Shown here in pieces: positions 27,881 through 64,000 of a DNA stretch of 64,000 bases. The notes beneath the pieces were generated by a model. The model did no database searches. It had not been told where the DNA came from and saw only the letters and a list, made by a program, of their open reading frames with translations. Both the position numbers and the translations under genes were made by a program. Source of the stretch: Candidatus Nomurabacteria bacterium (GTDB taxonomy: Bacteria > Patescibacteriota > Minisyncoccia > Phycocordibacterales > UBA9973); NCBI GenBank assembly GCA_943354905.1, contig CALRDL010000002.1, positions 6,478 to 70,477 of the forward strand, written 5' to 3'. Each line of letters opens with the position of its first letter. The stretch's first letter is position 1.

Positions 27881-28489
27881 TTAAATTCTAGAATACGAAA
27901 CTCCTTTTCCTGTTTTTCCGACTTGTTTAATTTTATTTTCCTTTCCCAAGATATTTAGATATCGGGTTGCTGTTGCGTCAGACACATGCAAATACTTTTC
28001 GACTTCGTCGTTAGTTATATTTTTCTTTTTCAAAAACAAAGTCATTATTTTTTCCAGTTTCTTTCTTTTGCCGATTTGGACTTTATCTAGGAACTTTTTC
28101 CATAAATCTTTTTGGGAGAGTTTTGTTTTTACTGGTTCAGGTCTGGATTCAGGAATTGGTTTTATTTCAGTTTGTTTAACTTCTTCTTTTACTGGTTCAG
28201 GTTTTACTTCGGGAACTTCTATCTCTACTCGCTCGCCTAACGGCTCGCTCGTAGAGTTCAACGGCTCAAATACCGGTGTTTGAGCCGTTGGGGTTTCAGT
28301 TACCTTAGGAGCTTCGTTCTCCATGGGGATTATCTCAGGGGGGATAGCTTGCTCTGGCTCGGCTTTCGCCTCGCCTAAAGCTTCGCTTGCGATAGAAGTA
28401 GGTTCAGGACTAGAAATCGGCTCCTGCGAAGCCTCGGGTTTAGGTTGAGTTATTGTCGTATCGCTTGAAGTTTCATCTACCATACTCAT
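27881..28489 (-). CDS. DNA-binding protein: Pro/Glu-rich low-complexity N-terminus plus C-terminal winged-HTH
   Basis: The C-terminus is ...NDEVEKYLHVSDATATRYLNILGKENKIKQVGKTGKGVSY. Confidence 0.35.
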   Translation of the reverse strand: MSMVDETSSDTTITQPKPEASQEPISSPEPTSIASEALGEAKAEPEQAIPPEIIPMENEAPKVTETPTAQTPVFEPLNSTSEPLGERVEIEVPEVKPEPVKEEVKQTEIKPIPESRPEPVKTKLSQKDLWKKFLDKVQIGKRKKLEKIMTLFLKKKNITNDEVEKYLHVSDATATRYLNILGKENKIKQVGKTGKGVSYSRI

Positions 28490-28542
28490 ATTATATCAGA
28501 ATTTTTATTGAAAAATAAACGAAAACATGGGATGATTAAGTT

Positions 28543-29202
28543 ATGAAAATTAAGGATTTTGACAAAGTAGATTTACCACGCGAAAAACTTGCGAAATACG
28601 GCTCAGGTAAATTAAAAGATCACGAACTTCTCGCAATTCTTCTCGGTTCTGGAATAAAAGGGCTGAATGTACTTGAACTTTCTAAAAAAATTCTCAAGGT
28701 TGTTGAGAAAATCGGAATAAAAAATATAACACTAAAAGATTTATTAGAAATAAAAGGACTTGGTAATGCTAAAGCTTCGCAAGTGTTCGCATTGTTTGAA
28801 TTGGGGAAGAGATTAAATTCCGATAATAAAACAGAAATTCTGTCAGCTAAAGATATTTGGAAATTATGCTCCGATGTCTGCGAATCAAAGAAAGAACATT
28901 TTCTCGCATTTTATTTAGATACACAAAATAGATTAATTGAAAAACAAGTTATTTCAATCGGCACGCTTAACTCAAGTCTTGTTCATCCAAGAGAAGTTTT
29001 TGAACCAGCTATCGCACTTCATTCAGCAAGCATAATAATTGCACATAATCATCCATCTCAAGATCTGACTCCATCTGCCGAAGATAAGAAAATTACAGAA
29101 AGACTTGTTGAAGCAGGGAAAATTTTAGGAATTGAAATTTACGACCATGTTATTTTGAGCAAATCGGGTTATCTAAGTTTTCAAAAAGAACATCTACTCT
29201 AA
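28543..29202 (+). CDS. radC: RadC-like JAB-domain protein
   Basis: Contains LLAILLGSG..G.NV...LGNAKA (HhH region) and the JAMM motif IIAHNHPSQDLTPSAEDKKIT. Confidence 0.8.
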   Translation: MKIKDFDKVDLPREKLAKYGSGKLKDHELLAILLGSGIKGLNVLELSKKILKVVEKIGIKNITLKDLLEIKGLGNAKASQVFALFELGKRLNSDNKTEILSAKDIWKLCSDVCESKKEHFLAFYLDTQNRLIEKQVISIGTLNSSLVHPREVFEPAIALHSASIIIAHNHPSQDLTPSAEDKKITERLVEAGKILGIEIYDHVILSKSGYLSFQKEHLL

Positions 29203-38507: not shown

Positions 38508-39213
38508 TATGAAAAAATTTGTCTTTGGAACATTCATATATGAATATCATCTTATCAAACAAGATAGAAAAACTCTTTCTTTGACAGTTGTTCCCGATTT
38601 AAAAATCATTCTTAAATGTCCGCATAATGCTGATGATAAGAGGATAGAGGAATTTTTGAAAAGAAAATGGTTTTGGCTAGAAAAACAACTTTCCTTTTTC
38701 AAGAAATATCAAAGAAATATTTACCAAAAAGAATATATTTCTGGCGAGGGATATTTATATCTTGGCAGACAATACAAACTTGTCGTTAAACACGGCAAGG
38801 AAGATCTGGTCACCCTTACAAAAGGCAAACTAATGGTGTCTTCGACTAAATTAGTATCAAATGGCAATTACAATAAAAAATTGATTGATATTTGGTTTTT
38901 AGAAAAAATGCAGAAAATCTTTCAAGAAAGATTTTCTGCTATGTTGGATAAATTTGATTACAAAAATAATCCAGTTTTGAAAATACGAGAAATGAAAAAA
39001 CGCTGGGGTAGTTTTTTGAATAAAGACAAAATTTTTCTCAATCCCAAGCTCATTAGTACACCAAAAGAATGTATTGATTACGTAATAGTTCATGAGCTTT
39101 GTCATCTAAAATACAAAAATCATGACAAAAGGTTTTTTGAGTTGTTCAATAAAAAATTTCCAAAATGGGAAAAAGTTAAAGATAAATTAGAAATTTTAGG
39201 AGTAGGTATTTAA
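38491..39213 (+). CDS. DUF45/YgjP-like (M48-related) zinc metallopeptidase
   Basis: Contains YVIVHELCHL (HExxH) and lies downstream of hsdR, a known association. Confidence 0.55.
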   Translation: MNYFYNMKKFVFGTFIYEYHLIKQDRKTLSLTVVPDLKIILKCPHNADDKRIEEFLKRKWFWLEKQLSFFKKYQRNIYQKEYISGEGYLYLGRQYKLVVKHGKEDLVTLTKGKLMVSSTKLVSNGNYNKKLIDIWFLEKMQKIFQERFSAMLDKFDYKNNPVLKIREMKKRWGSFLNKDKIFLNPKLISTPKECIDYVIVHELCHLKYKNHDKRFFELFNKKFPKWEKVKDKLEILGVGI

Positions 39214-39214
39214 T

Positions 39215-39452
39215 TGAAGCCCACCCTCGCCCCATCGCCCATACCAAAAAAAAGAATTCCCCCCCCGCCAAACTAAAATAGAATGGAAATGCGATGGAGT
39301 GAGGGCAGACGACGAGCTTAAGCTCGTCGTGGCGGAATTGTTAGCGTTACCACATTAGTAGAGCGTGAAAAATAGTTTAGAAAAATAATAGTCGTAGAGC
39401 GTGAGATTAAGTATTTTGCTGGAAAAAAGTTCGTGCAAAGGTTAGGATTACT
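39215..39452. repeat. GC-rich repeat modules (homologous to 27317-27400 in inverted orientation) preceding the recombinase left inverted repeat
   Basis: The shared string is cctcgcccc..cccataccaaa...cccccgc..aaa...atggaaatg..tgg. Confidence 0.5.
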
Positions 39453-39591
39453 CCGCAAATTGAAACTTCCTCGGCAGAAAGCGAAAAAAGCGGGCGCGCC
39501 AAAGGCGCGGTATGAAGTGATGAAATGAAATCCGCCTTGCGGGTGCAGGTGAAAATGGAGGGCGGGCAGAAAAAGAAATGAGATTGAAATA
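39453..39591. repeat. Left terminal inverted repeat (~139 bp) of the serine-recombinase element
   Basis: Its reverse complement matches 41018-41149 almost perfectly, with a single ~7-nt indel. Confidence 0.75.
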
Positions 39592-39620
39592 GTATTATCA
39601 GTTTTGAATCCAAAAGCAAT

Positions 39621-41198
39621 ATGAACAAACCAAAATATTTTCTCTATGCTCGCAAGTCCACAGAAGATGATGACAGACAAGTCATGTCCATTGAAGCACA
39701 GCTTTTTGAATTGCGTGAATTTGCGAGCAGAGAAAATCTTGAAATTCTTGAAGAATTTCAAGAGTCAAAAAGCGCAAAGAGTCCGGGACGAAGTGTCTTC
39801 GGCGAAATGATGAATAAAATTGAAAGTATGGATGGTGTTGGTATTCTTGGATGGCACCCGGATCGTTTAGCGAGAAATTCAATTGACGGTGGACGCATCA
39901 TTTATGCCGTAGACACTACAAAAATAGTTTCTTTACGCTTTCCGACATTTTGGTTTGAACCCACACCGCAGGGGCTGTTTATGCTTCAAGTGGCATTCGG
40001 ACAAAGTAAATATTATTCTGACAACCTAAAACAGAATGTTGAGCGAGGTTTTCGCCAAAAACTGCGACGAGGTGAATGGCTAACGCGCGCGCCATTTGGT
40101 TATGTGAACAATTTAATTACGCACAATATTGAACCTGATCCGGTGAAATCTAAAATCATCGTGCGCGCGTACAAAGCGTACGCAACAGGTTCACATACTC
40201 TCGTTTCGTTATCGCAGTTTTTGGCGGAACATGGTGTTGTCCAAAAGTCCGGAACGCCACTTGTCAAAGCTTCCGTGCAAAGAATGTTATCCAATCGCGC
40301 ATATCTCGGCCTCGTCAAACACCACGGCGAGTTCTTCACCGGAAGCTTTGCGTCAATTCTTTCTCCAACACTATTTGAAGCTGTGCAAAAAGTTTTAGAG
40401 AGACGAGCACATCCGAGACATAGCAAGATATCTCACAATTTTCCATTCACCGGTCTTTTTCGATGCGCTGAATGTGACAGTATGATTTCCGCACAATGGG
40501 CAACTGGAAAATGTGGTGGGCGGTATCGGTACTATCGATGCTCGAAAAAACGCGGTGTCTGTTTACAAAAATATCTTCGTGAAGATCTGCTCGTCTCCCA
40601 AATCAGAGAACAGCTTCAAGCAGTGTCGCTTCCCGAAGAGTGGTCGGATTATATGCTCAAAAAGGTAGAAAGATTTGAGCATGAAGAAACCAACGCTTCA
40701 GAAAGTCGGCTCGGGCAGATGAAAGAAGATTTAAAAATGCTTGAAGCGAAACTCGACGCATTAGTTGATTTATACTTAAACAAAGATATTGAAAGAGAAA
40801 TATATTTAGTGAAAAAAGATATTTTAATGCGTCAAAAAATCTCGCTTCAAGCCAAATCTTCATCTACCCGAGCCGAGAGAAAGAATTGGGTCGAACCCCT
40901 GCGGAAATGGATTTTGGATTCAAAACACGCGGGGTTTCTCGCTACGAGTGAAAATCTCCACGAAATGAGAGATTTTCTTCGTTCCTTTGGAACGAACCCC
41001 GCGCTGAATGACAAAACTATTTCAATCTCATTTTGCCCGCCCTCCATTTTCACCTGCACCCGCAAGGCGGATTTCATTTCATCACTTCATACCGCGCCTT
41101 TGGCGCGCCCGCTTTTTTCGCTTTCTGCCGAGGAAGTTTCAATTTGCGGACAGAGTGAGATTCGAACTCACGGTCCTTTTAAGGGGACGGCGGTTTAG
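39621..41198 (+). mobile_element. Large serine recombinase (resolvase/invertase catalytic domain plus recombinase domain plus zinc ribbon). The annotated C-terminus reads through the right inverted repeat and tRNA, so the true stop is uncertain
   Basis: Catalytic-Ser motif YARKSTEDDDRQVMSIEAQ, resolvase fold (GILGWHPDRLAR), and zinc ribbon CAECDSM...CGGRYRYYRC. Confidence 0.7.
41018..41149. repeat. Right terminal inverted repeat of the serine-recombinase element, ending exactly at the 3' end of the minus-strand tRNA
   Basis: Reverse complement of 39453-39591. The last bases (..ATTTGCGG) overlap the tRNA acceptor/discriminator. Confidence 0.75.
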
Positions 41199-41233
41199 TA
41201 AACCGCTCCCGTAAACCACTTGGGTATCTGTCC
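41147..41233 (-). tRNA. Type II (long variable arm) tRNA, Ser-like, with apparent anticodon ACT (unusual); CCA not encoded
   Basis: Minus strand: acceptor GGACAGA/TCTGTCC with discriminator G, D-stem CCC/GGG, anticodon stem-loop GCGGT-TTACTAA-ACCGC, long variable hairpin GTCC..GGAC, T-arm GTGAG-TTCGAAT-CTCAC. Confidence 0.45.
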
Positions 41234-41333
41234 AGATACAAATCGAGTATAGCAGAAAAAAATAAAAAATGCAGAGAAATTTATGGAAAAATACAAGAAA
41301 TATGTTAGAGTAGTTAAGTAATAGATTACGTAT

Positions 41334-41423
41334 GGAGCCGTGGGAGAGCGGTCTAATCTACATCTTTGCTAAAGATGCAGGGGTTAAACCCCCTCGCGAG
41401 TTCGAATCTCGCCGGCTCCGCCA
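41334..41423 (+). tRNA. tRNA-Ser(GCU), CCA encoded
   Basis: Acceptor GGAGCCG/CGGCTCC with discriminator G followed by CCA, anticodon stem-loop CATCT-TTGCTAA-AGATG, long variable arm CAGGGGTTAAACCCCCT, T-arm GCGAG-TTCGAAT-CTCGC. Confidence 0.7.
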
Positions 41424-41465
41424 AAATTGGGAATCCGCATTTCTGGCGGGAATGCTTCACCCGAA

Positions 41466-41667
41466 TTTTTGTGGTATCTACTGGACAAAGTTCGAATGTT
41501 TTTTGCTAATAATCCTGACGACCAATGATGCGCGCCTCGTTCGCTCCCTGTGGTCGCGGGAGCAAAAACCAAAAATTTTCCTTACCTTTCTTATTTTCCT
41601 CGGCGGGGGGTGTGGGGGGGGGAGCCGACAAAAAATGGAAAGGAAATTTTTGGTTTTGCTTCGCCGC
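41466..41667. repeat. Inverted repeat copy 1 (~200 bp, GC-rich, with G6/G9 homopolymers) bounding the xre-fic cassette
   Basis: Its reverse complement matches 43846-44047. The central 150 bp are near-identical and the edges diverge. Confidence 0.7.
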
Positions 41668-41729
41668 TATGTTAATAATATACGAAAATGGTATATTCCA
41701 CAATAGACTATATTATGTTAATATCTATA

Positions 41730-41947
41730 TGTCGAAAAAATATTTGCCAAAATATCAAAAACTCACCGCAAAACTTCTTTCTGCTCGCCTAGAAGCAGGT
41801 TTAACACAGGTTGAAGTAGGTAAAAAGCTCAAGAAACCACAGGTGTATCTTTCTAAGATAGAACGAGGTGAGCGCGGAGTTGATGTGGTAGAATTAGCAG
41901 AACTGGCAAAGATTTACAATAAAGACATTAACTATTTTGTAAAATAA
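41730..41947 (+). CDS. XRE-family helix-turn-helix transcriptional regulator
   Basis: Contains LSARLEAGLTQVEVGKKLKKPQVYLSKIERGER, an HTH_3-type motif. The longer upstream extension given in the ORF track (41525..) lies inside the repeat and is probably not translated. A paralogue lies at 62047-62268. Confidence 0.55.
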
Positions 41948-42115
41948 TATGCCCAGAAACACTGAGCAAAAGAAAAAAGAGATAGAAGGCATCCTGGCTC
42001 GATACGAGGCAGGAATGATTATTCTAAGGCAGAAGCGAGATAAGATTATTTCCACTTTTCTTGAGTTGTTGAAAGAGAAAAAACTTGAAGAATTAAGAAA
42101 TTCACTCAAACAATT

Positions 42116-43576
42116 ATGAAATCCCCCGAAAATTTTACACCACCACAGACAGAAGTATCAAAAACTGAAAGTGAGATGACTCTATCTCCAGAGGTTGAAG
42201 TAGTGGAAGCCACTACTGAGTCGCTGGAACAATACAAAGAAACAGTAGAAGCTCATATTGATGAGCAATCGACAAATATAAATGCAGAAGCTGGACAAAA
42301 GATTGAAAGTTCCGCTAAAAATATGAATGTATCCCCTGAATTACTGGATTCAACAAAAGCAGAGAGTGGGTTAGAAAACCAAATGGCTGAAATTCAAGAT
42401 GAAGCAAATCAATTAAATCGAGTAGTAAAATTAGAGATTTCTGAAACGGTCGCAGAAGCTCCAGTGGAGAACACTCCTGAATCGGAAGTAAATCTCTCGG
42501 GAGGAAATGAATCAAAGGAAGATAAATTAGAAACCGGAGGAAAAGTTTTTGAATTTTTAGACCGCACAAAATTTTTGGATGTTCGAAAATCAGACGAACA
42601 ATTTAATGAGTGGCTTCAAAAACTTTCTTACGAAGATTATACAGATTACGTTACGCGCCTAAATGGTATTTTACGCGAAGTTCCAATAAAAGATCGTGGG
42701 GTAGATGGCGGAGAGGGTGAAGAAGTTTCTATCGGTACTAGAGGATATAATTTTTATGTTCCACCTGGTGCTGAACAAAAAGATGGTTTAATGCGAGAAA
42801 GTTTTCAAGCTCTCAAACAAATACCAGACAACGAAGATCGTGCTCTTTTAGCGTATTATACGATGCAAGCCGTTCACCCGTATGCTGACGGAAATGGTAG
42901 AACTGGTAGATTACTCCATGAAATAATTTCTGAAGACGGTAAAGAAATCACTAGCGAAAAACTCTCTGAACTTTTGGATCATGAGGAAAAAGGGCCGAAT
43001 GCTGTTGGAAAAGGACAAGATATTTTCTCTGAAAGAGTTTTAGAACCAAGCAGTGCGTATGAGTACATTAACCGAGAAGTTGCAAAAGAGGTTCTTGGTG
43101 ATGATTTTTTTAAGCAATATGGCTCTATCCATGTCGAACGTGGAGTTGGTAAAGATGCTGCTTTTTTACCAACAGCAGTAAAAGAAAAATTATCGCCAGA
43201 AGATGTAATTTTAGCTGAAAAAATTTTAGGTGAAGCAGGCATAAAAAATTTCTCTACTAGCGGCATAGTTTTAGCAAGGCTACTTTTGGAAAAAAGTGAT
43301 GAAATTTATAATCAATATCACTACGAGTATCCATTAAATGAGGAGGCTGACATGTCTATGGAGGGTATGGAAAAAAAGTATTTTGGAATTGATGGGCAAA
43401 ATCTTATGGCAAATTTGAGTGAAGAAGATGCACACAGGTTGATAGAAATTCACGCAAGTGTAAAAAATAGATTTATTGAAGACATGATTGATATTTTTGT
43501 ACATCCAGAGAATCGTCAAATGAAAGACGAAAACGGGAAAGATATTCCGATCAAGAGCGTCTTTCGTCGCAGTTAA
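42116..43576 (+). CDS. Fic-domain protein (AMPylase/Fic-Doc family)
   Basis: Canonical Fic motif HPYADGNGRTGRLL and an acidic N-terminal region. A small ORF (~41949-42118) lies between xre and this gene. Confidence 0.7.
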   Translation: MKSPENFTPPQTEVSKTESEMTLSPEVEVVEATTESLEQYKETVEAHIDEQSTNINAEAGQKIESSAKNMNVSPELLDSTKAESGLENQMAEIQDEANQLNRVVKLEISETVAEAPVENTPESEVNLSGGNESKEDKLETGGKVFEFLDRTKFLDVRKSDEQFNEWLQKLSYEDYTDYVTRLNGILREVPIKDRGVDGGEGEEVSIGTRGYNFYVPPGAEQKDGLMRESFQALKQIPDNEDRALLAYYTMQAVHPYADGNGRTGRLLHEIISEDGKEITSEKLSELLDHEEKGPNAVGKGQDIFSERVLEPSSAYEYINREVAKEVLGDDFFKQYGSIHVERGVGKDAAFLPTAVKEKLSPEDVILAEKILGEAGIKNFSTSGIVLARLLLEKSDEIYNQYHYEYPLNEEADMSMEGMEKKYFGIDGQNLMANLSEEDAHRLIEIHASVKNRFIEDMIDIFVHPENRQMKDENGKDIPIKSVFRRS

Positions 43577-43581
43577 GGGAG

Positions 43582-43627
43582 CAATCCCCGCCGTTTTATA
43601 ATATCTCCTAAAAAACGGCGGGGATTT
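43582..43627 (+). terminator. Strong hairpin terminator after fic
   Basis: CAATCCCCGCCGTTTT..(loop)..AAAACGGCGGGGATTTG forms a ~15-bp stem. Confidence 0.5.
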
Positions 43628-43845
43628 GTGCGCGCACAGGGCGGGCGGGGCAAGCACATACAGATTTGTTTGTGCCTAGCACAATCCGCTTTATGAGTTA
43701 CCACTGTTCTCTGTCGAAGCCACAGAGTATCAAGCTACCACAGAACATCGAGAGGAAGCGCCTCGTCTCGCCGCAAGGACGGAGAAATGAACAACGCCAA
43801 AGAACCACAAATGATATAATGAAAATGTTAATTTCATAGTCTGTA

Positions 43846-44047
43846 GCGGCGAAGCAAAACCAAAAATTTCCTTTCCATTTTTTGTCGACTCCCCCCCACC
43901 CCCCGCCGAGGAAAATAAGAAAGGTAAGGAAAATTTTTGGTTTTTGCTCCCGCGACCACAGGGAGCGAACGAGGCGCGCGATTAGTAGCTTTCATCAGGA
44001 TTTAGCTCGAAGTAATTTCGAACTTTGTCCAGTAGATACCACAAAAA
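43846..44047. repeat. Inverted repeat copy 2 bounding the xre-fic cassette
   Basis: Reverse complement of 41466-41667. Confidence 0.7.
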
Positions 44048-44130
44048 TTGGCATAAGGTACATTTTCCGTGGCTTGTTTTGAGGGTTTTACCCTTGTGGT
44101 ATATAACTAGAAGTGCTAACTTTTAATTAT

Positions 44131-44337
44131 GAATTTAAAAAAACAACAAAATATGTAGTATTTGTGGTTCTAGTGAGGTGATTAAAAGAGGAATACAAGA
44201 TGGAGTACAAGTATATAAATGTAAAAAATGTGGAATTAGATTTAGAAATCAAAGAAGAGAGAAAGTAAATTTAGAAAAATATATTTTACCAAAAACTGAT
44301 TTAAAAAGCCACGGAAAATGTATCTTATGCCTCAAAT
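44131..44337 (+). pseudogene. Remnant of an IS transposase N-terminal zinc-ribbon (IS1595/ISXO2- or IS1-like), frameshifted with no intact start
   Basis: The translation ICGSSEVIKRGIQDGVQVYKCKKCGIRFRNQRREKVNLEKY... shows a CxxC-x16-CxxC transposase zinc-ribbon pattern. The only ATG is in another frame. Confidence 0.3.
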
Positions 44338-44877
44338 AATCTAATTTCTGATTTTACAGAAGAAGTTCAAGCATCTATAGAGGTTAAAAAATAGTAGGAT
44401 TCTATAAAATTATAGTTATCCACAACAACTTGAATAATTCCTGTATTTTAGTATACTATAAGTATCTCATTTACCTAGTGTAAAAGGAGCACTTGAAACG
44501 CCTCGCAAGAGGCGTTTCTTGCTATGTGGGGCTAGAATTTTTGGAATACTTTTCAAACTCTTTGCGGTGTCGTTTTTTCTGATATGGATAATCAACGTAG
44601 ATTCCAGTGATAATATAAAATCCATGTTTATTTTCATCTAGTATCACAAGATAGCTACCACATTCTAAATATAGGCACACACGATTTGTTTTTCGTTTAT
44701 TGCAGTAATTTTTTCTTTTGGTACATATATAGAACCAAGCACCATAACTGGGGCTTTATCAAACTCTAAATGGTTGCTTTCGTCGCAGTAAATATTGTAT
44801 TCGGTCATAACGCATTGTATTATAGCAAAATTTTGTAGTTTTTGGGAGCAAAAATCATGCGCGCGAACGGGAGGGTG

Positions 44878-45010
44878 GGTTAAGCACATGCATTCTGTGC
44901 CTCGGGCATTTCCGCTAGGGTGTTCACGATTAAAGGACGAGTGCCTGACCCGAATTGCAATCCATAATCGAAAGCGAAAGCTACACACCAAACATAATAT
45001 TGAAAAACGT
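44878..45010. repeat. GC-rich repeat module (same family as 27727-27833 inverted and 43630-43690)
   Basis: The string gcgaacgggagggtgggttaagcacatgcattctgtgcctcgggcatttccgctagggtg..aaaggacgagtgcct..aattgcaa..agcgaaagc aligns with the other copies. Confidence 0.55.
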
Positions 45011-45171
45011 AGAGTGGGGATGGCGATAGTGCGACCCGTATATCTAAAACTATTTTAGAAAAATTCTAGCTAATCTCAATTCTTCATACGAATAATCCTC
45101 TCCCAAAATTTCGCGAACTGGAGCCAATAACATACCGCCAGTTTTTTTAAATGCATCTCTGATTATTTCCT

Positions 45172-49632: not shown

Positions 49633-49679
49633 AATTATAAAGGTCGAATATTATTAAATTAATCAAAAAATAAATTATT

Positions 49680-49901
49680 ATGAAACTTTCAAAAATATTT
49701 CATGTTATAGGTGCTATTGTCGGATGGGTTGGAGTTATTGCTCTTTTGAGCGCTTGGTTTGCAAGTAAAAATGGTTTAGTATTAGGAATGAGTGAGACGC
49801 ATCTTTTTATGGATGCAATAGTTCTTGTGCTTGTTGCTATCTGGCTTCAACTTGGAACAATTCACCACATGATGTTGGAGAAGACTGGGGAGAAAATATA
49901 A
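49680..49901 (+). CDS. 73-aa two-TM protein, paralogue family member 1 (C-terminal IHHMMLEKTGEKI)
   Basis: Near-identical family members lie at 51264..51485 and 52840..53061. Confidence 0.45.
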   Translation: MKLSKIFHVIGAIVGWVGVIALLSAWFASKNGLVLGMSETHLFMDAIVLVLVAIWLQLGTIHHMMLEKTGEKI

Positions 49902-49910
49902 CTATCATTT

Positions 49911-50303
49911 ATGATTACTCAAAAACTAAAAACCATATTTTTTATATCAATTCCAATCTTTATTGCTCACGGCATTGAAGAGTATTTTACTGGCTTATAT
50001 AATTTTGATTTTTTCTATCAATCTTTTTCTAATCCAAAATTAGTATTTGTAATTGTTGTTCCTGTCTTAGCAAATATTTTATTAATAGTTTCTTATGTAC
50101 TTGTTAAAAAAAATAAATGGGTGTTTGGTTTATCTTTTTTACTAGGGCTACTCTTTATTTTTGAATTAACTCATATCTATGAAGCTATTATGGTAAGGGG
50201 CTATTATCCTGGATTATATACTGCAATTCCTTTACTAATTGTCGGATTTCTTTTCTGGAAAGAATTATTAAAAAATTATAAAAGTCGAACATTATTAAAA
50301 TAA
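49911..50303 (+). CDS. Small membrane protein (hypothetical)
   Basis: Three or four TM helices. Confidence 0.3.
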   Translation: MITQKLKTIFFISIPIFIAHGIEEYFTGLYNFDFFYQSFSNPKLVFVIVVPVLANILLIVSYVLVKKNKWVFGLSFLLGLLFIFELTHIYEAIMVRGYYPGLYTAIPLLIVGFLFWKELLKNYKSRTLLK

Positions 50304-50314
50304 ATAAAAATAAC

Positions 50315-50938
50315 ATGAATAATAAAATTGTATTTGGAATAGGAGGAGTCGTAGTCGGTTTAGTTTTAGCAGGCATGTTTGGGGGAAGTATGTTTTCTGC
50401 ATTTAACAATGGGAATAATAGAATGATGGGTAACAATCAAAATACAGGAAGTAGTCAAATGATGGGGAGTATAGACAAACATTTCATCGAGCAGATGATT
50501 CCGCACCATGATGGAGCTGTTGCGATGGCAACACTCGCTCTCGAAAAATCAAAGCGTCCCGAAATTAAAACTCTCGCGAACGCAATAATTGAAGCTCAAA
50601 ATAAAGAAATAGTGGATATGCGAAGCTGGTATAAAAATTGGTTTGGTAAAAATGTTCCAAAAGAAAGTACAGGTATGATGGAGGGAGGAATGATGTCCGG
50701 GGGTGGAATGCATATGGGAGGAGATGAAGATATTAAGGCTCTAAAAAATGCGATAGATTTTGACAAGGCATTTCTTGAGGGGATGATCCCACATCATCAG
50801 TTAGCTATAATGATGGCACAGATGTTGAAGTCAGGAACTGATAGACCAGAGATGCTGACACTTGCGGATAATATCATCGAATCACAATCTAAAGAGATAA
50901 AACAAATGCAAGGTTGGTATAGTAATTGGTATAAATAA
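50315..50938 (+). CDS. DUF305-family protein (copper-resistance-associated four-helix protein)
   Basis: Two F.E.MIPHH repeats plus a Met/Gly-rich linker (MMEGGMMSGGGMHMGG). Confidence 0.7.
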   Translation: MNNKIVFGIGGVVVGLVLAGMFGGSMFSAFNNGNNRMMGNNQNTGSSQMMGSIDKHFIEQMIPHHDGAVAMATLALEKSKRPEIKTLANAIIEAQNKEIVDMRSWYKNWFGKNVPKESTGMMEGGMMSGGGMHMGGDEDIKALKNAIDFDKAFLEGMIPHHQLAIMMAQMLKSGTDRPEMLTLADNIIESQSKEIKQMQGWYSNWYK

Positions 50939-50988
50939 AATTATAAACATCTGTCGAGATTATTAAAAGTTAATTAAAATAAAAATAT

Positions 50989-51243
50989 ATGCATAATTCA
51001 TCATGTTGTGGGGGAAAAGGAGAAAAAGATAGGTCATGTTGTAATGCAGAAGATAAGTCTTGTTGCGGGGAAGGAAAAACATCTGGAAATATGGTCGTGG
51101 ATGTAGTGTGTGGCATGGAAGTTGATCCGAAAGAAACCAAGATTCAATTGGAGTACAAAAATAAAGTATATTACTTCTGTAACGTTGATTGCAAAAGTAA
51201 ATTTGAAAACGATCCTGAGAAATACGTTGTTAAAAATAATTAA
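50989..51243 (+). CDS. YHS/TRASH-domain metal-binding protein with an N-terminal Cys-rich segment
   Basis: Contains DVVCGMEVD....YKNKVYYFCNVDC (YHS domain) and an N-terminal SCCGG..SCCN..SCCGEG segment. Confidence 0.6.
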   Translation: MHNSSCCGGKGEKDRSCCNAEDKSCCGEGKTSGNMVVDVVCGMEVDPKETKIQLEYKNKVYYFCNVDCKSKFENDPEKYVVKNN

Positions 51244-51263
51244 TAAATTAATTAAAAAATATT

Positions 51264-51485
51264 ATGAAACTATCAAAATTATTTCACGTTCTAGCTGCTG
51301 TTGCGGGATGGGTTGGAGTTATTATGCTTTTCAGCGCTTGGTCTGCCGGAGAAAATGGTACAGTGTTTGGGTTTACACAAACACATCTTTTTACTGATGC
51401 AGCCATACTTGTTTTGGTTGCTATCTGGATGCAACTTGCTACTACGCATCATATGACGCTTGAGAAGACTGGAGAGAAAATATAA
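51264..51485 (+). CDS. 73-aa two-TM protein, paralogue family member 2
   Basis: MKLSKLFHVLAAVAGWVGVIMLFSAW...ATTHHMTLEKTGEKI. Confidence 0.45.
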   Translation: MKLSKLFHVLAAVAGWVGVIMLFSAWSAGENGTVFGFTQTHLFTDAAILVLVAIWMQLATTHHMTLEKTGEKI

Positions 51486-51510
51486 GATATTAAAAATAAA
51501 CCTTTAATTT

Positions 51511-52818
51511 ATGGATAAATCAAGCAAAAAATATGTAGTTATTATTCTGGGTATTTTCCTCATTGGTTTGAGTATTTTACTATTTGCTCGGCAAGTTGAG
51601 ATTTTATCACTTTTTAAATTCGTGTTCATTCGAGTTTTCGGTCTAGTGATCTCTCTTGGAGCTGCTGGATTCTTTATTTTCTGGATTATTCGCAAATTCC
51701 ATTCGTTGAAGATCGCTGCCATTTTCTCAGTTATTCTTGTTGGAGTTTCTTTCTTTCTTTTTATGCCTTATGCATTTCCGGAGCGACTGCAGTACCCTTT
51801 CTTTTTGAAAACATTCGGACCTTCTGATGGGCCGAGTCTCCCGCTCAAAAACGTGCTGACGTTCTTTTTGAAGCAATCAAATATGGAGCGGGTATCAGAT
51901 ATCGCCCGAGATCCTAATGATCTGCCACCACCAATCACACGTATCTCCCCTGAGCGCGTAAAAATTGAACTAGAAACACAAGAGGTAATCGCTGAAATGG
52001 CAGATGGGGTAAAGTTTAATTATTGGACATTTAATGGCACTGTGCCAGGACCGTTTCTGCGTGTGAGAGAGGGAGACACTGTTGATCTAACTCTTAAAAA
52101 CAGTGCTTCCAGTCTCCATCATCATAATATTGACCTTCATGCCGTTACCGGGCCTGGTGGCGGAGCGGCTGTTACTAATATTGCCCCTGGTGAATCCAAA
52201 ACCTTTACTTTCAAAGCCATAAATCCAGGACTGTACGTCTATCATTGTGCGCATCCAAATGTTGCTACCCATGATGCTCATGGTATGTATGGTCTTATTC
52301 TCGTCGAACCAAAGGAGGGTCTTCCAAAAGTTGATAAGGAATTTTATGTTATGCAAGGTGAATTTTATAGCACTGGTGGATTGGGAAAGAAAGGACTCCA
52401 GATCTTTGACGCTCAAAAGATGCTTGACGGAAAGCCTGAATATGTGGTCTTTAACGGTCGTGTTGGAGGATTAAACAGTAAAATGAAAGCTCAAGTTGGA
52501 GAAAAAATACGAATATTTGTGGGCAACGGAGGTGTGAACTTTATTTCCTCTTTTCATGTGATCGGAGAAATATTTGACACTGTGTATCCCGAAGGATCAA
52601 TGGGCGGAGCGATGTTTAAGAATGTTCAGACTACATTGGTTCCCGCAGGAGGATCAGCAATCGTCGAGTTTGATACCGAAGTACCCGGCAAGTATATACT
52701 AGTAGACCATGCTCTTTCAAGATTAGACCGTGGTGCCTGGGGGGTACTAGAACTTATTGGTGAACCAAGCAAAGATATCTTTGACGGAGTGTTTGATATT
52801 AATAATAAAAGTCATTAA
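51511..52818 (+). CDS. nirK: Copper-containing nitrite reductase (NirK-type two-domain cupredoxin) with an N-terminal membrane anchor
   Basis: HHHNIDLHAVTGPGGGA corresponds to the NirK HNIDFHAATG region holding T1 and T2 Cu His ligands. YHCAHPNVATHDAHGM has H-C adjacent and then C-x7-H-x4-M, the T1 Cu ligands. About three TM helices at the N-terminus. Confidence 0.6.
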   Translation: MDKSSKKYVVIILGIFLIGLSILLFARQVEILSLFKFVFIRVFGLVISLGAAGFFIFWIIRKFHSLKIAAIFSVILVGVSFFLFMPYAFPERLQYPFFLKTFGPSDGPSLPLKNVLTFFLKQSNMERVSDIARDPNDLPPPITRISPERVKIELETQEVIAEMADGVKFNYWTFNGTVPGPFLRVREGDTVDLTLKNSASSLHHHNIDLHAVTGPGGGAAVTNIAPGESKTFTFKAINPGLYVYHCAHPNVATHDAHGMYGLILVEPKEGLPKVDKEFYVMQGEFYSTGGLGKKGLQIFDAQKMLDGKPEYVVFNGRVGGLNSKMKAQVGEKIRIFVGNGGVNFISSFHVIGEIFDTVYPEGSMGGAMFKNVQTTLVPAGGSAIVEFDTEVPGKYILVDHALSRLDRGAWGVLELIGEPSKDIFDGVFDINNKSH

Positions 52819-52839
52819 ATTAGTTTATAAAAATATATT

Positions 52840-53061
52840 ATGAAAATATCAAAAATAATGCATGTTGCTAGTGTTATCGTGGGGTTGATCGGAGTGGTTG
52901 TCTTTGTTAGGACACTTGGAGTTCCGTCAGATGGAATGGTTTTTGGAATCGCAAAGTTTGATGCGCTATTTTGTGTAGCAATTCTTTTCCTTATTGCTAT
53001 ATGGGTTCAGATTGGAACAATTCACCACATGATGTTGGAGAAGACTGGGGAAATTATTTAA
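52840..53061 (+). CDS. 73-aa two-TM protein, paralogue family member 3
   Basis: ...IGTIHHMMLEKTGEII; followed by the junction repeat. Confidence 0.45.
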   Translation: MKISKIMHVASVIVGLIGVVVFVRTLGVPSDGMVFGIAKFDALFCVAILFLIAIWVQIGTIHHMMLEKTGEII

Positions 53062-58326: not shown

Positions 58327-60867
58327 ATGTATATGATGAACAATGGAATCAAAAAAAAGCCCTTAACTTACATAAGCCTGTTTAGTAGTGCTGGCGTTGG
58401 TTGTTATGGATTTAAACTTGAAGATTTTGAATGTGTTGCGACAAATGAAATTATAGAAAGACGTTTGAATGTACAAAAACATAATAATAAATGTCGTTAT
58501 GAAAGTGGTTATATAGCTGATGATATCCTAAAAGAGGAAACCAAAAATAAAATAAGAAAAGAACTCGAATTTTGGAAGAAAAATCATGATGTTAAAGAAC
58601 TTGATGTTTTAATTTCAACTCCACCCTGCCAAGGAATGTCAGTTGCAAATCATAAAAAGGGTGACGAGTTAGCTCGTAATTCTTTGGTTATAGAATCTAT
58701 TAAACTTGTTGACGAAATTAGACCTAAATTCTTTATCTTTGAAAATGTTAGGGCTTTTTTGAATAGTTTATGCACTGATACTGATGGAAAAGATAAAAAA
58801 ATTCGTGAAGCCATCGAATTAAATTTAGGAGGTAAATATAATATACATTACCAAGTAATAAATTTTAAAGATTATGGTAACCCGTCTAGCAGAACTAGAA
58901 CTCTTGTTCTCGGTACAAGAAAAGACTTGCAAGAAATAACCCCATTAGATTTTATGCCAACTTTGCAAAAAGAAAAAACAATTCGGGAAGTTATCGGTCA
59001 TTTACCAAGTTTAAAAGTTATGGGAGAAAGTGATACGAAAGACATTTATCATAATTTTAGATCATATGCAGATCGTATGCGAAATTGGATAAGTGGAACA
59101 AAAGAAGGTGAGTCGGCTTTTGATAACAAAAATCCAAAATTTCGTCCACATAAAATAATTGATGGGGAGCTAGTTTCTAATACGCAAAAAAATGCTGATA
59201 AATACAGTAGGTGTTTCTGGAATAAAGTTTGCCCTTGTATTCATACAAGAAATGATATTCTCGCTAGTCAAGCAACCATACATCCATCCGATGATCGTGT
59301 TTTTAGTGTAAGAGAGTTAATGAAACTTATGTCTATTCCAGACTCATATAGATGGACTGGTATATCTGAAGAAAAACTTAATAACTTATCACCTGAAGAA
59401 AAATTAAAATTCTTTAAGAAAGAAGAAGTGAATATACGTCAATCAATCGGTGAAGCTGTTCCCACAATTATTTTTCAACAAATCGCTAAGAATATAAAAA
59501 GATCTATCCAGCGAAATATTTTAGATGAAAAAGATATAGAAAAAATTATCATTAACAACAATCTAACTGAAATAGAGAATTTAAAATCTTTTCTTAATGA
59601 GCATTTAGTTAAATATTCATTTGCCGAATTATCAAAAATAGTAGAATTAGCTAATGCCTATAGATTTAAACACGCGGCTTATTATACTCGTCAAGATATA
59701 TGCTTTACCGTTATTAAAGATTTACCTGATGCTTCAAATTTCAATTCAATTAAAATTTTAGAGCCATCCGTTGGGGCAGGAAACTTTTTACCCCTTTTAA
59801 TTGAAAAATACAAATCGATTTCAAGTGTCCAGATTGATGTAATAGATATAGATAAAAACGCAATTGATATACTAAAAATCTTAATCAAAAAACTAAATAT
59901 CCCAGTAAATATAAAAATCAATTTTCTAAACGAAGATTTTCTCTTATTTGGACAGAATGGCCTTTTCTCAAATGAGAATGTCCACTACGATATAGTCGTC
60001 GGCAATCCTCCCTTTGGAAAAATTTCTGACAACGAATCATTACTCACGGAATACAAAAGAGGAAAATTTAATACAAAAACTAGTAATTTGTTTTCCTTTT
60101 TTCTCGAGAAATCCATTAATCATGCAGATACTGTTGCATTAATAATACCAAAAAGTTTTTTATCATCTCCTGAATTTGATGCTACTCGAGAGTTTGTTTC
60201 TAAATTTGCAGTGTCAAAAATCACAGACTACGGAGAAAAAGGATTTAAGGGGGTCAAAATAGAAACGATAAGTCTTATTATAAATACAAAAAAAACAAGT
60301 ATAAATAATCAGACTTTAGTTGAATCTTATATAAAAAATGAATTTGGTTTTAAAGACCAAAATTATATTTGCTCTAAAGAATTTCCTTATTGGCTAGTGT
60401 ATCGAGATTCATTTTTTGACGAAGTAGCTTCAAGGCTTAGTTTTGGAGTATTCACTGCATATAGAGATAGGCAAATAACTAAACAGATTACAAAAAATAA
60501 AGGACAAATACGAGTTCTCAAATCAAGAAATATTGGAAGTAATAAAATTGTAAATATTCCAGATTATGATTCCTATGTAGATGAGTATAAAAATCTATCG
60601 ATAGCAAAATATATAAACCACGACGAAGCTGTTCTTGTTCCAAATCTCACATATAATCCTAGAGCCTGTTTTCTTCCAGAAAATACCATCGTGGATGGTT
60701 CTGTCGCAATTCTTATTCCTATAAATAAAACAAAAATTACAAAAAATGATCTCGCATATTACAATTCAGAGGAATTTGTTGGATTCTATCGAGTTGCTAG
60801 AAATTATGGTACCAGATCTCTCAATATAGATAACAATTCAGTTTTCTTCTTTGGGTTAAAAGTCTAA
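58327..60867 (+). CDS. Fused DNA methyltransferase: N-terminal C5-cytosine MTase plus C-terminal N6-adenine/N4 (NPPF) MTase
   Basis: FSSAGVGCYG (motif I), PPCQGMSVAN (PCQ motif IV), FIFENVRAF (ENV), then a second domain with EPSVGAGNFL and VVGNPPFGK. Confidence 0.65.
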   Translation: MYMMNNGIKKKPLTYISLFSSAGVGCYGFKLEDFECVATNEIIERRLNVQKHNNKCRYESGYIADDILKEETKNKIRKELEFWKKNHDVKELDVLISTPPCQGMSVANHKKGDELARNSLVIESIKLVDEIRPKFFIFENVRAFLNSLCTDTDGKDKKIREAIELNLGGKYNIHYQVINFKDYGNPSSRTRTLVLGTRKDLQEITPLDFMPTLQKEKTIREVIGHLPSLKVMGESDTKDIYHNFRSYADRMRNWISGTKEGESAFDNKNPKFRPHKIIDGELVSNTQKNADKYSRCFWNKVCPCIHTRNDILASQATIHPSDDRVFSVRELMKLMSIPDSYRWTGISEEKLNNLSPEEKLKFFKKEEVNIRQSIGEAVPTIIFQQIAKNIKRSIQRNILDEKDIEKIIINNNLTEIENLKSFLNEHLVKYSFAELSKIVELANAYRFKHAAYYTRQDICFTVIKDLPDASNFNSIKILEPSVGAGNFLPLLIEKYKSISSVQIDVIDIDKNAIDILKILIKKLNIPVNIKINFLNEDFLLFGQNGLFSNENVHYDIVVGNPPFGKISDNESLLTEYKRGKFNTKTSNLFSFFLEKSINHADTVALIIPKSFLSSPEFDATREFVSKFAVSKITDYGEKGFKGVKIETISLIINTKKTSINNQTLVESYIKNEFGFKDQNYICSKEFPYWLVYRDSFFDEVASRLSFGVFTAYRDRQITKQITKNKGQIRVLKSRNIGSNKIVNIPDYDSYVDEYKNLSIAKYINHDEAVLVPNLTYNPRACFLPENTIVDGSVAILIPINKTKITKNDLAYYNSEEFVGFYRVARNYGTRSLNIDNNSVFFFGLKV

Positions 60868-60869
60868 AA

Positions 60870-62045
60870 CTAAATATTAGAGAATACTGATTCTACTTGA
60901 TCTAAACTAGAAGTTTCTTTTAATTTAAGATTAAAGGCTGAGTTTATTACTTGTATGAATCTATTCAACATATAAAAATCCTCCCCATTTTTTAAAGATG
61001 TTTTTATATTTTCAAATTTTCTTTTTAGACAAACTTTTTGAAACTCAGGATCAATTCTGTGTGTGTTACCTTGAATATGAGCATACGACAAGTGTTGTCC
61101 TGGAGTTAGTGCAATTAAATTTTCTCTAAAGAGGGCGAACTCGGGATTTGAATGTTGGGGTAACATATGGTGAATATGAACGCCTCCCTCTGGTGTGAAA
61201 TTATATTCTTGCTCTTGAATTTCACTAATTCCATTATATTTTTTCTTTATATCAGCTTTAACTTTCTGTAATAATACTACCCCGACAACACCACTTGCAT
61301 CGATATCTAAGAGTATGCTTTCTCTATACTCTTGTCTTGTCATACCTGACGGCATGTTTTCGTCTCTGAAATTTTTACGATTATATATCAAAAAAGAATA
61401 CGGACATGGGCCACTTGTTATGTTTGAACCATCCTCTCCGGGTATTCTGTGTTTATAACAATAAACATTAAACATTTTATTAAATACTCGGTAAGTATGT
61501 TTACGATCAGTGCCTCTTATTTTTGTATTGATTTTTGCCCATAACCAATACTTATCTTTAGCAATTAAGTGATTTGCTTGTGTAGGATTATTTTTGTATT
61601 TTTCAAAATCTACAATAAGCCCATTATCAGTTAAAAATTTCTCAGTATATTCAGTTAAGAATTTAGAAGCATTAAGGTCGTTCGTAGACATATACTCCAA
61701 TGCCTCCAGATTTGTAATCTTGTATTGTTTGGGGCGGTCACTAACTTTTTCAAGAATACCTGCGTAAGATAATAGTCCTAATTGATAGGAACTAACTTTG
61801 TTATATTCTCTTGGGGCAAGAGCTTGTGATGGTTTGGAAAAATAATCTTGCATTAAATTATCGAATAAAGACGAAAGTCTTATTTCGCTATCTGAAAATA
61901 CTAGATTTCTATCGTTTTTTGTAATATCAAGAATAACCAAAGAAACACACCATAATAAATCTGGCGTAGTTTTCTGCTCGTAATGAAGCCCTTGTTTAGG
62001 GATTTTTCTTAAATTTTTATTTGTAAAATACTCTTGGAAATTCAT
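60870..62045 (-). CDS. Putative type II restriction endonuclease (partner of the fused MTase)
   Basis: It is convergent with and abuts the MTase, and is co-transcribed with an upstream C-protein. It has a His-rich GGVHIHHMLPQH segment. No family could be assigned. Confidence 0.4.
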   Translation of the reverse strand: MNFQEYFTNKNLRKIPKQGLHYEQKTTPDLLWCVSLVILDITKNDRNLVFSDSEIRLSSLFDNLMQDYFSKPSQALAPREYNKVSSYQLGLLSYAGILEKVSDRPKQYKITNLEALEYMSTNDLNASKFLTEYTEKFLTDNGLIVDFEKYKNNPTQANHLIAKDKYWLWAKINTKIRGTDRKHTYRVFNKMFNVYCYKHRIPGEDGSNITSGPCPYSFLIYNRKNFRDENMPSGMTRQEYRESILLDIDASGVVGVVLLQKVKADIKKKYNGISEIQEQEYNFTPEGGVHIHHMLPQHSNPEFALFRENLIALTPGQHLSYAHIQGNTHRIDPEFQKVCLKRKFENIKTSLKNGEDFYMLNRFIQVINSAFNLKLKETSSLDQVESVFSNI

Positions 62046-62046
62046 A

Positions 62047-62268
62047 TCATTTTATGAAAAAAGACAGCTCCTTTTTATAAATTTTTGCAAACTCTTTGAG
62101 TTGTGTAATATCAAGTCTGCGTTGCCCAGCTTCAATTTTTGATACATGAGGTTGAGTTTTACGAAGTAGCTTCGCTACATCAGCTTGATCTAATCCAGCT
62201 TCAAGACGAGCTTTTTTAAGCTGTTCAACAGTATATTTATGATCTTTAGAAAAAATCGCCTTTGTCAT
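62047..62268 (-). CDS. XRE-family HTH controller (C) protein of the type II R-M module
   Basis: 73 aa with LKKARLEAGLDQADVAKLL..QPHVSKIEAGQR. It sits immediately upstream of, and overlaps, the REase gene, which is the classic C-protein arrangement. Confidence 0.5.
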   Translation of the reverse strand: MTKAIFSKDHKYTVEQLKKARLEAGLDQADVAKLLRKTQPHVSKIEAGQRRLDITQLKEFAKIYKKELSFFIK

Positions 62269-63769: not shown

Positions 63770-64000
63770 GATTTTGTTTTTTGGCGGTGTGTGTTGGACA
63801 AAGTTCGAAACTATTTCGAGCAAAATCCAAACGATTAAAATGGACTCGGCAGGGCGAAATAATTTGTCTAGGGGAAAGGATTCGCCCTGCCTCGGCTGAT
63901 TTCCCGCCCGCAGGAGAGATCCGCTATGAGGAAAAGTCAAGCATTTCGGTAGACAGTTTTGTGTTTCAACATCATCCAAACTATGTTCACAATCTGACGG
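63770..64000. repeat. Another copy of the GC-rich repeat family (truncated by the window end)
   Basis: Shares TGGACAAAGTTCGAA with the ends of the xre-fic inverted repeats, shares ccgctatgaggaaaag with 27845-27860, and has the hairpin GGCAGGGCGAA...TTCGCCCTGCC. Confidence 0.5.

Follow-up and report, generated by a model that had tools for sequence, protein, structure and literature searches.

In other phyla, cargo elements that target tRNA genes have been described, along with derivatives that lack the recombinase (bioRxiv 10.1101/2020.12.28.424599). This report concerns a cassette in a 64,000-nt stretch of DNA from a Candidatus Nomurabacteria bacterium (assembly GCA_943354905.1, contig CALRDL010000002.1); the whole stretch is referred to as the window. 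The cassette lies directly behind a tRNA-Ser(GCU) gene and carries an XRE-family regulator and a Fic-domain protein between two long inverted repeats, the arms. It represents, in a non-autonomous copy, a widespread but apparently undescribed variant of serine-recombinase islands. No earlier description of this architecture was found in the literature searched on Patescibacteria and the candidate phyla radiation (CPR).

Patescibacteria have tiny genomes with few recognised mobile elements. To our knowledge, the routes by which they exchange defence genes are largely unknown.

Arms, recombinase and island layout

The arms of the window cassette span 41464–41669 (left, tRNA-proximal, plus strand) and 43844–44049 (right, distal, minus strand). 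Repeat search and alignment identify them as inverted copies of each other, which confirms the repeats of about 200 bp given in a preliminary description of this DNA. The repeat search yields three collinear blocks, 41464–41521/43992–44049 (58 nt, 81% identity), 41530–41618/43891–43979 (89 nt, 99%) and 41606–41669/43844–43907 (64 nt, 92%), which BLAST merges into a single inverted pair of 206–212 bp with 89% identity and gaps. In the arm-to-arm alignment the outermost 33 nt are identical. About 40 diverged nucleotides with indels follow, starting exactly behind GGACAAAGTTCGAA, and the innermost ~155 nt are near-identical apart from a G-run; about 150 bp of near-identity with diverged edges had been noted before. 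The left arm comprises the outer terminus, the half-palindrome GGACAAAGTTCGAA, a long hairpin and a G-rich loop, and the outer half-palindrome of the right arm is of a different subfamily, ATTACTTCGAGCTAAATCC. Hairpins are abundant inside each arm, and both arms are assigned to type 2 by their inner sequence. The G-run reads G6-TGT-G9 in the left arm and G6-T-G7 in the right arm. The earlier suggestion that such homopolymers could slip is carried as far as run length, which varies between the two arms and among relatives, from G6 to G9. The host is low in G+C (~31%) and the stretch at 39.2–44.05 kb is higher.

Between the arms lie, on the plus strand, a controller-protein-like XRE-family regulator of 72 residues that belongs to the conserved chassis (41729–41947; Pfam HTH_3, E = 3e-12), a predicted helical open reading frame (ORF) of 56 residues (41949–42119) and the Fic-domain protein of 486 residues, which is the cargo (42116–43576; PF02661, E = 3.4e-8, above the cut-off). 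They are followed by a strong bidirectional terminator-like hairpin (43583–43626; −29.3 kcal/mol, z = −4.8). Gene content and terminator are as first described. The tRNA-Ser(GCU) gene (41334–41423, plus strand; ARAGORN), at whose 3′ end the cassette is taken to have integrated, lies 40 nt upstream of the left arm, in accordance with the adjacency already noted. A promoter consensus scan gave no signal above shuffled sequences.

The arms belong to a family. In a GTDB scan of one genome per species with the pattern GGACAAAGTTCGAANNNNNTTNGNNNNNAATCC, the outer module was found in at least 117 species genomes, nearly all of them Patescibacteria and from many classes. The strict outer-module pattern had no match in viral contigs, and blastn with an arm had none in plasmid and phage collections. 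Family members are ~200 bp long and have a sharp outer terminus, a near-invariant imperfect palindrome of 37 bp and conserved hairpins. In a motif-anchored alignment conservation begins abruptly at GCGGTG, and the flanks are unrelated. The inner parts fall into a few types, each more than 90% conserved across CPR classes. Type-1 arms (37 distinct sequences, >90% identical) contain the imperfect palindrome TTGGACAAAGTTCGAAA-CTA-TTTCGAGCAAAATCCAA, one hairpin with five compensatory pairs and another with an invariant G-rich loop. Convergent arm pairs are 1.6–6.9 kb apart overall and enclose a small XRE gene and variable cargo. About 20 GTDB loci hold such pairs at distances of 1.7–5.9 kb, the paired arms being 95–100% identical, and 20 further pairs are present in JGI contigs.

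The layout of the islands rests on a comparison of more than 200 loci. A search of JGI metagenomes with a profile of the recombinase gave at least 492 relatives, and 80 loci were kept. At the level of sequence, a complete island is shown to consist of the 3′ end of tRNA-Ser, a gene for a large serine recombinase (LSR) between inverted repeats F′ and F, a first arm, the XRE gene and cargo, a terminator and the inverted second arm, which borders on host DNA. The LSR gene is directed towards the tRNA, where its 3′ end lies, and XRE and cargo are transcribed away from it. In 28 GTDB loci the LSR is located directly outside the arm on the XRE side, and in 59 of 65 JGI loci the arm terminus is 153–157 nt from the LSR match. 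A convergent tRNA-Ser (anticodon GGA, CGA, UGA, GCU or ACU) follows no more than 450 nt downstream of the LSR in 51 of 62 JGI loci, and this arrangement is also present in 13 GTDB loci. F′ and F are ~120 nt long and 84–100% identical in all eight loci examined. F′ extends into the final six tRNA bases, and F extends into the beginning of the arm. A single orientation was observed in all of about 30 cassettes (~10 GTDB loci and 20 of 20 in JGI contigs). Variants of the layout include a recombinase module between two head-to-head arms (L172, L173 and L154) and tandem cassettes spaced by 46–174 nt (L131, L117, L169 and L170). Two features of tRNA-integrated serine-integrase islands, a recombinase gene and an island boundary at the tRNA 3′ end, are thus found.

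Recombinase ORFs (41020–41198 in the window; also L029, L035, L040 and others) extend 50–60 codons past the conserved core into F′, so the F′ repeat appears to encode a C-terminal tail of the recombinase.

Arms and recombinases correspond to each other. Main-clade LSRs, which share 70–96% identity, accompany arms with GGACAAAGTTCGAA. LSRs of the window clade (38–42% identical to the main clade) accompany arms with CCTTTGCRCGAAC, in the window as well as in L215–L217, and an XRE-Fic cassette (L211) is bounded likewise. Of all the observations, this co-variation of LSR clade and arm module speaks most strongly for the arm terminus as the site of the recombinase.

Furthermore, the final six bases of the cognate tRNA recur at the arm terminus, as TGGCGG in main-clade loci and as GTGA(G/C)C in those of the window-type clade. 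In the main clade TGGCGG is separated from TTCGAA by 16 nt in the arm and by 11 nt in the tRNA; in the window-type clade the arm reads GTGAGC, 17 nt, CGAAC and the tRNA GTGACC, 11 nt, CGAAC. In both clades the T-loop motif (TTCGAA or CGAAC) is thus 5–6 bp further out in the arm than in the tRNA. An outward shift of this kind is known between the attP and attB half-sites of serine integrases.

Two loci from different samples of one study, L215 and L216, share 99.5% identity as far as CTCCGC, with which a tRNA-Ser(CGA) ends on its 3′ side (position 9941), and are unrelated thereafter. The additional segment of L216 is at least 7.6 kb long and holds restriction-modification (R-M) genes and a second recombinase. 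Judged from the two contigs, this amounts to a presence/absence difference between strains, located at exactly the kind of site predicted.

Movement of the islands and alternative explanations

The arm termini may be the DNA sites on which the recombinase acts. The island would then integrate at tRNA-Ser, the junction of tRNA and F′ would correspond to attL, that of distal arm and host to attR, and that of F and proximal arm to an internal attP-like copy. New cargo would be gained by recombination within the conserved chassis, which comprises arm and XRE on one side and terminator and arm on the other.

The Fic cassette itself has no recombinase. Its left arm is separated from the tRNA by a quasi-palindromic spacer of ~40 nt (41424–41463; ~46 nt if measured between the tRNA CCA and the conserved core of the arm). 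Compared with the junctions of L035, L059, L113 and L077, the first ~13 nt of the spacer match the start of F′ and its last ~32 nt correspond to the end of an F of the L059 type. The tandem cassettes L131 and L117 show a similar gap of 46 nt. The spacer is therefore best described as a putative scar of a deleted recombinase module. The sole recombinase nearby belongs to the other clade and has different arms, and the window copy is presumably a non-autonomous derivative in the canonical position at tRNA-Ser(GCU), in which the scar replaces the module.

Taken together, the window repeats are probably, though with considerable reserve, the boundary arms of one cargo cassette in a family of small serine-recombinase islands at tRNA-Ser, with recombinase sites at their termini, a non-autonomous window copy and a Fic effector as cargo. 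Several points weigh against this explanation. For the Fic cassette the data reached contain no product of recombination, be it an empty site, a circle junction or the opposite orientation, and the 64-kb window contains no cognate main-clade recombinase. The near-perfect identity of arm to arm and of F to F′ is not explained by a simple attP × attB reaction and needs gene conversion or a duplicative step. A circle with two equivalent attP copies predicts two isomers and one is seen. Within the arm, conservation peaks at the 37-bp palindrome, 12–48 nt inside the terminus, and not at the junction, which makes the crossover point uncertain. The F sequence beside the junction is only moderately conserved. 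The argument from the register shift depends on general background about the structure of serine-integrase att sites. Additionally, Fic genes of the same family occur in ordinary chromosomal contexts, which tells against taking toxicity for granted.

A bolder extension is put forward tentatively. Arms and recombinase module together could form a CPR-native gene-capture platform based on a serine recombinase, a functional analogue of integrons or of recombinase-mediated cassette exchange. Inverted half-site units of P type (cargo) and P′ type (recombinase) would be joined, stacked and swapped at tRNA-Ser and would spread defence genes across the radiation.

Alternatively, the arms may mainly be structured cis-regulatory or RNA elements, one serving as leader and promoter of the XRE gene and the other as an insulator or terminator. 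Their likeness would be kept by gene conversion, and they would have no direct role in movement. The conserved hairpins, the five compensatory pairs in hairpin A and the invariant G-rich loop point in this direction, as do the correspondence of XRE type and arm type, the conserved terminator block inside the distal arm and the terminator-shaped hairpin of F. However, Rfam 15 gave no arm match at gathering score or E ≤ 1 other than noise (whole window, with a permissive search of 39000–44600 and 27200–28600), and the window arm has no clear advantage in folding over shuffled sequences (z = −1.2 for the plus and −2.9 for the minus strand). The compensatory changes come from one small lineage. 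Sharp termini, tRNA mimicry and co-variation with the recombinase clade are left unexplained, and a purely regulatory function is considered unlikely. Such a function is compatible with boundary arms of a mobile island and does not exclude them.

Passenger genes without a transposase inside long inverted ends are also what is expected of a mobile insertion cassette or a pair of miniature inverted-repeat transposable elements (MITEs), mobilized by a DDE or IS110-type transposase acting in trans. There is an IS110 element close by, along with other remains of mobile elements, many copies are present per genome and assemblies break at the arms. Yet no target-site duplication was found at ~120 aligned arm termini and no transposase in ~40 cassettes examined. 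The constant partners are instead a serine recombinase at a fixed 153–157 nt and tRNA-Ser, and the IS110 copy is inserted into an arm loop and is not the source of the arm. The arm-bounded cassettes thus lack the features of a transposon with terminal inverted repeats or of a mobile insertion cassette, and terminal repeats of a transposase-type element are a quite improbable explanation.

Long inverted repeats that adjoin a serine recombinase, a quasi-palindromic site in the arms and a G-run of variable length are reminiscent of an invertible, phase-variable switch. Expression of fic would then depend on inversion of the segment by the recombinase next to it, with slippage in the G-run as additional control. 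Site-specific inversion implies both orientations between fixed flanks, and the invariant orientation in ~30 cassettes across genomes argues strongly against it: wherever the side is known, XRE and cargo point away from the recombinase, and the 3′ end of the recombinase gene is always at the tRNA. Moreover, XRE and its upstream region are located inside the segment and would be inverted along with it, the window arms differ exactly at the palindrome centre and the adjacent recombinase is from a non-cognate clade. A switch is very improbable.

Metagenome assemblers can generate inverted duplications, but the likelihood of an assembly artefact or chance repeat is practically nil and this explanation is refuted: a match of 89 nt at 99% makes a chance repeat untenable, the differences between the window arms at the edges and in the G-run exclude a duplication during assembly, the independent short-read assemblies L001, L003 and L004 (two of the same sample) break within the arms, and hundreds of unrelated contigs show the same architecture.

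The Fic protein and the exchange of cargo

The window protein is a member of the Fic/DOC family by its match to the PF02661 profile and by the motif HxFx(D/E)GNGRxxR, here HPYADGNGRTGR at residues 254–265. In an alignment of 32 homologues His254, Gly259, Asn260, Gly261, Arg262 and Arg265 are invariant, so that the catalytic motif reported earlier is indeed intact. A regular-expression search for the inhibitory motif (S/T)xxxE(G/N), proposed as a check in the preliminary description, found none in the Fic protein, the 56-residue ORF or the XRE protein, and no conserved column of the 32-member family alignment contains it. The protein and the small ORF are thus outside the auto-inhibited Fic classes I–III. 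The small ORF, mooted as an antitoxin, has no family match either. It is missing from L005 and L211, the other two XRE-Fic cassettes, in which XRE is directly 5′ of fic, and does not represent the conserved small antitoxin gene immediately upstream that characterizes FicTA-type pairs.

The family is restricted to Patescibacteria and its members are typically ~365 residues long. Compared with these, the window protein has a coiled-coil insertion of 115 residues near the N-terminus. The insertion (42190–42520, residues ~26–113) is acidic, is predicted to form a helical hairpin and is absent in the homologues of 365 residues. In the AlphaFold model (mean pLDDT 80, core mostly >90) it consists of two long helices. 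The best sequence and profile matches of the protein are SoFic and FICD. The match to the PADLOC SoFic model PDLC03963 (E = 2.9e-11) is limited to model positions 117–208 of 361, and a Foldseek search against the PDB gave weak matches in the catalytic core alone (E ~0.01, TM ~0.2).

The closest homologue is that of L005 with 68% identity, and the two arm-flanked XRE-Fic cassettes are at 63–68%. More distant homologues (61–64%) are found without arms, amid ribosomal, Ruv and tRNA-synthetase genes. Thus, the cassette is not universally syntenic; universal synteny would have told against its mobility. In other loci the arms bound mostly defence cargo beside an LSR at tRNA-Ser, which supports the earlier view of a mobile toxin or defence-like module rather than a housekeeping one.

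The Fic protein may be an XRE-restrained toxin or defence effector that would AMPylate a protein target or attach a related nucleotide-derived group to it. Its activity would be controlled at transcription by XRE, by analogy with the operons of R-M systems with controller proteins (C proteins). In these operons, too, an HTH_3 protein of 65–73 residues comes first and is followed by a potentially lethal enzyme, and the cargo of sister cassettes truly consists of R-M systems (AccI, HincII, HpaII, HindVP and others). In the window, in contrast, the regulated gene encodes a Fic enzyme and the regulator is part of the mobile chassis rather than of the cargo. With the Fic toxins and defence proteins (VbhT/VbhA of FicTA, SoFic, FICD) the window protein shares the canonical HxFx(D/E)GNGRxxR core and the pairing of fic with a small upstream gene and a regulator. 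It differs in having (S/T)xxxE(G/N) neither in cis nor in the small ORF, in resembling solved structures only in its catalytic core, and in belonging to a Patescibacteria-specific family with, in this member, the 115-residue insertion. For Fic biology, the locus provides an apparently uninhibited Fic enzyme in a slot for defence cargo.

Nearly always, an XRE-type gene of 64–91 residues is located just inside one arm and is followed by co-directional cargo, mostly R-M, toxin-antitoxin (TA) or defence genes. The R-M cargo includes AccI, HincII, HpaII and HindVP with C5, N6 and EcoRI-type methylases, as well as Mrr, GmrSD and type III Res. Other cassettes carry ThsB-TIR with a membrane protein, HNH with DHH or a SocA/Panacea antitoxin domain, and some metabolic or metal-resistance genes are found as cargo as well.

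Two loci, L121 and L093, share with the window the type-2 arms (~80% nucleotide identity) and the XRE protein (78–81% amino-acid identity). Their cargo is unrelated to that of the window and comprises Ham1 with unknowns in one and zinc-ribbon proteins with a Panacea domain in the other. The similarity ends at the XRE stop codon (41947), returns at the terminator (43576/43621) and again at 43754. The chassis of arm, XRE, terminator and arm has thus been kept while the cargo was replaced; the simplest explanation is homologous recombination inside the chassis. The hairpin at 43583–43626 opens a conserved distal chassis block (43576–43668 and 43754–43843) that is kept in L093, L121, L122 and L124 although their cargo differs.

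Conversely, XRE-Fic is found in three types of chassis, those of the window, L005 and L211. In L005, XRE precedes Fic and the flanking inverted repeats are at least 125 nt long with 98% identity; their outer module is common with the window arms and their inner sequence is different. The type of XRE co-varies with that of the arm.

Adjacent elements and comparison with known systems

Upstream of the Fic cassette lies a second island with its own tRNA. Its LSR gene (39621–41198, plus strand, core to ~41020) contains the Pfam domains Resolvase, Recombinase and Zn_ribbon_recom that together define an LSR, and its ORF continues into the downstream repeat. The protein is 38–42% identical to the main clade and has a clade of its own with 5294 proteins at E ≤ 1e-30. 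The gene is flanked by an inverted repeat of ~125–150 bp (125 nt at 98%, 149 nt at 94%), F at 39452–39600 (plus) and F′ at 41009–41150 (minus). F′ abuts the 3′ end of a tRNA-Ser(ACU) gene, the putative integration point of this island (41146–41233, minus strand; ARAGORN, Rfam tRNA 51.7 bits), and the same arrangement is present in L214. The anticodon with A34 is unusual in bacteria. As this tRNA recurs beside tRNA-Ser(GCU) in L077, L113 and L214 and is also found in three JGI loci, it is a genuine gene of these lineages.

On the far side of the LSR gene a divergent arm, arm0 (39213–39457, minus strand), carries the outer module CCTTTGCACGAAC instead of GGACAAAGTTCGAA. This module is also located beside LSRs of the same clade in L215–L217 and bounds XRE-Fic in L211. 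A truncated partner of arm0 is present at ~27318–27392 (plus strand), and the two enclose a type I R-M system together with RadC and YgjP. L059 is 93% identical to the window through hsdR and ygjP and has, at the same place, a main-clade recombinase (39% identity to that of the window) and a canonical arm. Most likely, modules of recombinase and arm have been swapped against constant cargo. A single inversion of the segment between the two tRNA-Ser genes relative to L077 was considered and dropped, as two separate islands, one per tRNA-Ser, fit better. Look-ups of the exact recombinase and XRE proteins gave no further contexts.

A third, partial arm of type 1 is located at 63779–63930 (plus strand) and is interrupted in its G-rich loop by an IS110-family element, as a sister contig shows. 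This element with a DEDD transposase (window 63779–64000; L002 6356–7984) is inserted directly after CCCGCAGGAG in the loop, and L067 and L083 have another insert at the same position. An IS110 origin of the arms was rejected, since the IS110 copy sits within the arm, between CCCGCAGGAG and GGGGAGGAATGCGGG.

Non-coding DNA of ~460 nt at 27417–27880 is GC-rich and hairpin-rich and has no Rfam match. Arms of L067 and L083 contain related inserts, and a fragment of 150 nt with 92% identity is present at 44876–45026, close to the right end of the Fic cassette. The sequence is possibly a separate mobile or RNA element.

Immediately behind the right arm, an inverted repeat of 29 nt (93%; 44050–44078/44303–44331) encloses 224 nt in a MITE-like manner. 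The segment holds the start of an ORF of 53 residues with a CxxC...CxxC pattern (44178–44339), which had been described as the zinc-ribbon remnant of an insertion sequence (IS). In Pfam it matches just DUF7128 (E = 0.009), and an IS origin was not confirmed.

Further downstream, three direct repeats of ~230 nt (66–77% identical, ~1580 nt apart) are located at 49672–53061 in a copper-resistance region downstream of a P-type ATPase. A second controller-type module at 58327–62268 encodes an XRE protein of 73 residues, a protein of 391 residues without assigned role and an Eco57I-like methylase/endonuclease of 846 residues. A LexA-like gene adjoins this module, and LexA-methyltransferase fusions recur in related loci.

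One highly conserved chassis that carries R-M, TIR, TA and Fic genes at tRNA-Ser, and recurs on hundreds of contigs from metagenomes and in the genomes of at least 117 species, would be a major route of gene flow in the radiation. A compact recombinase with defined sites of ~50 bp and natural tRNA targets would be a candidate tool for genome engineering. For annotation, the chassis accounts for frequent contig breaks in CPR assemblies.

Four kinds of mobile system invite comparison. If excised, the element would resemble the amphimeric replicons (yeast 2-micron with FLP, pSM19035 with β recombinase), since the circle would contain two unique segments, recombinase and cargo, and two inverted repeats of ~330 bp. 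Unlike these, the CPR element has no replication genes, no flip isomers were seen and the circle is hypothetical. With mobile insertion cassettes and MITE-bounded genes it shares transposase-free passenger genes between long inverted repeats, but the CPR cassettes are without target duplications, their repeats are not IS ends and their partner is a site-specific serine recombinase.

The resemblance to integrons (IntI, attI, attC) includes a recombinase divergent from the adjacent cargo bay, hairpin-forming boundary repeats, IS110/IS1111-type elements that insert in these repeats, exchangeable cargo and tandem cassettes. The CPR islands are nevertheless not integrons, as the recombinase is a serine instead of a tyrosine recombinase and the boundaries are inverted pairs of 200 bp in place of one attC per cassette. 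Furthermore, CPR cassettes bring their own regulator and promoter, and the platform is located at a tRNA gene.

LSR islands at tRNA genes, such as SCC/Ccr and the LSR variants of marine cyanobacterial cargo elements (bioRxiv 10.1101/2020.12.28.424599), likewise have an LSR with Resolvase, Recombinase and Zn-ribbon domains that ends a small cargo island at a tRNA 3′ end, recombinase-less derivatives and accessory or defence cargo. In contrast to these, the CPR modules are bracketed by near-perfect inverted repeats of ~120 bp (recombinase) and ~200 bp (cargo), and the island retains an internal mirror image of the tRNA junction. The CPR arms are more than 90% conserved across classes, and the islands are 3.5–9 kb in size and occur in tandem.

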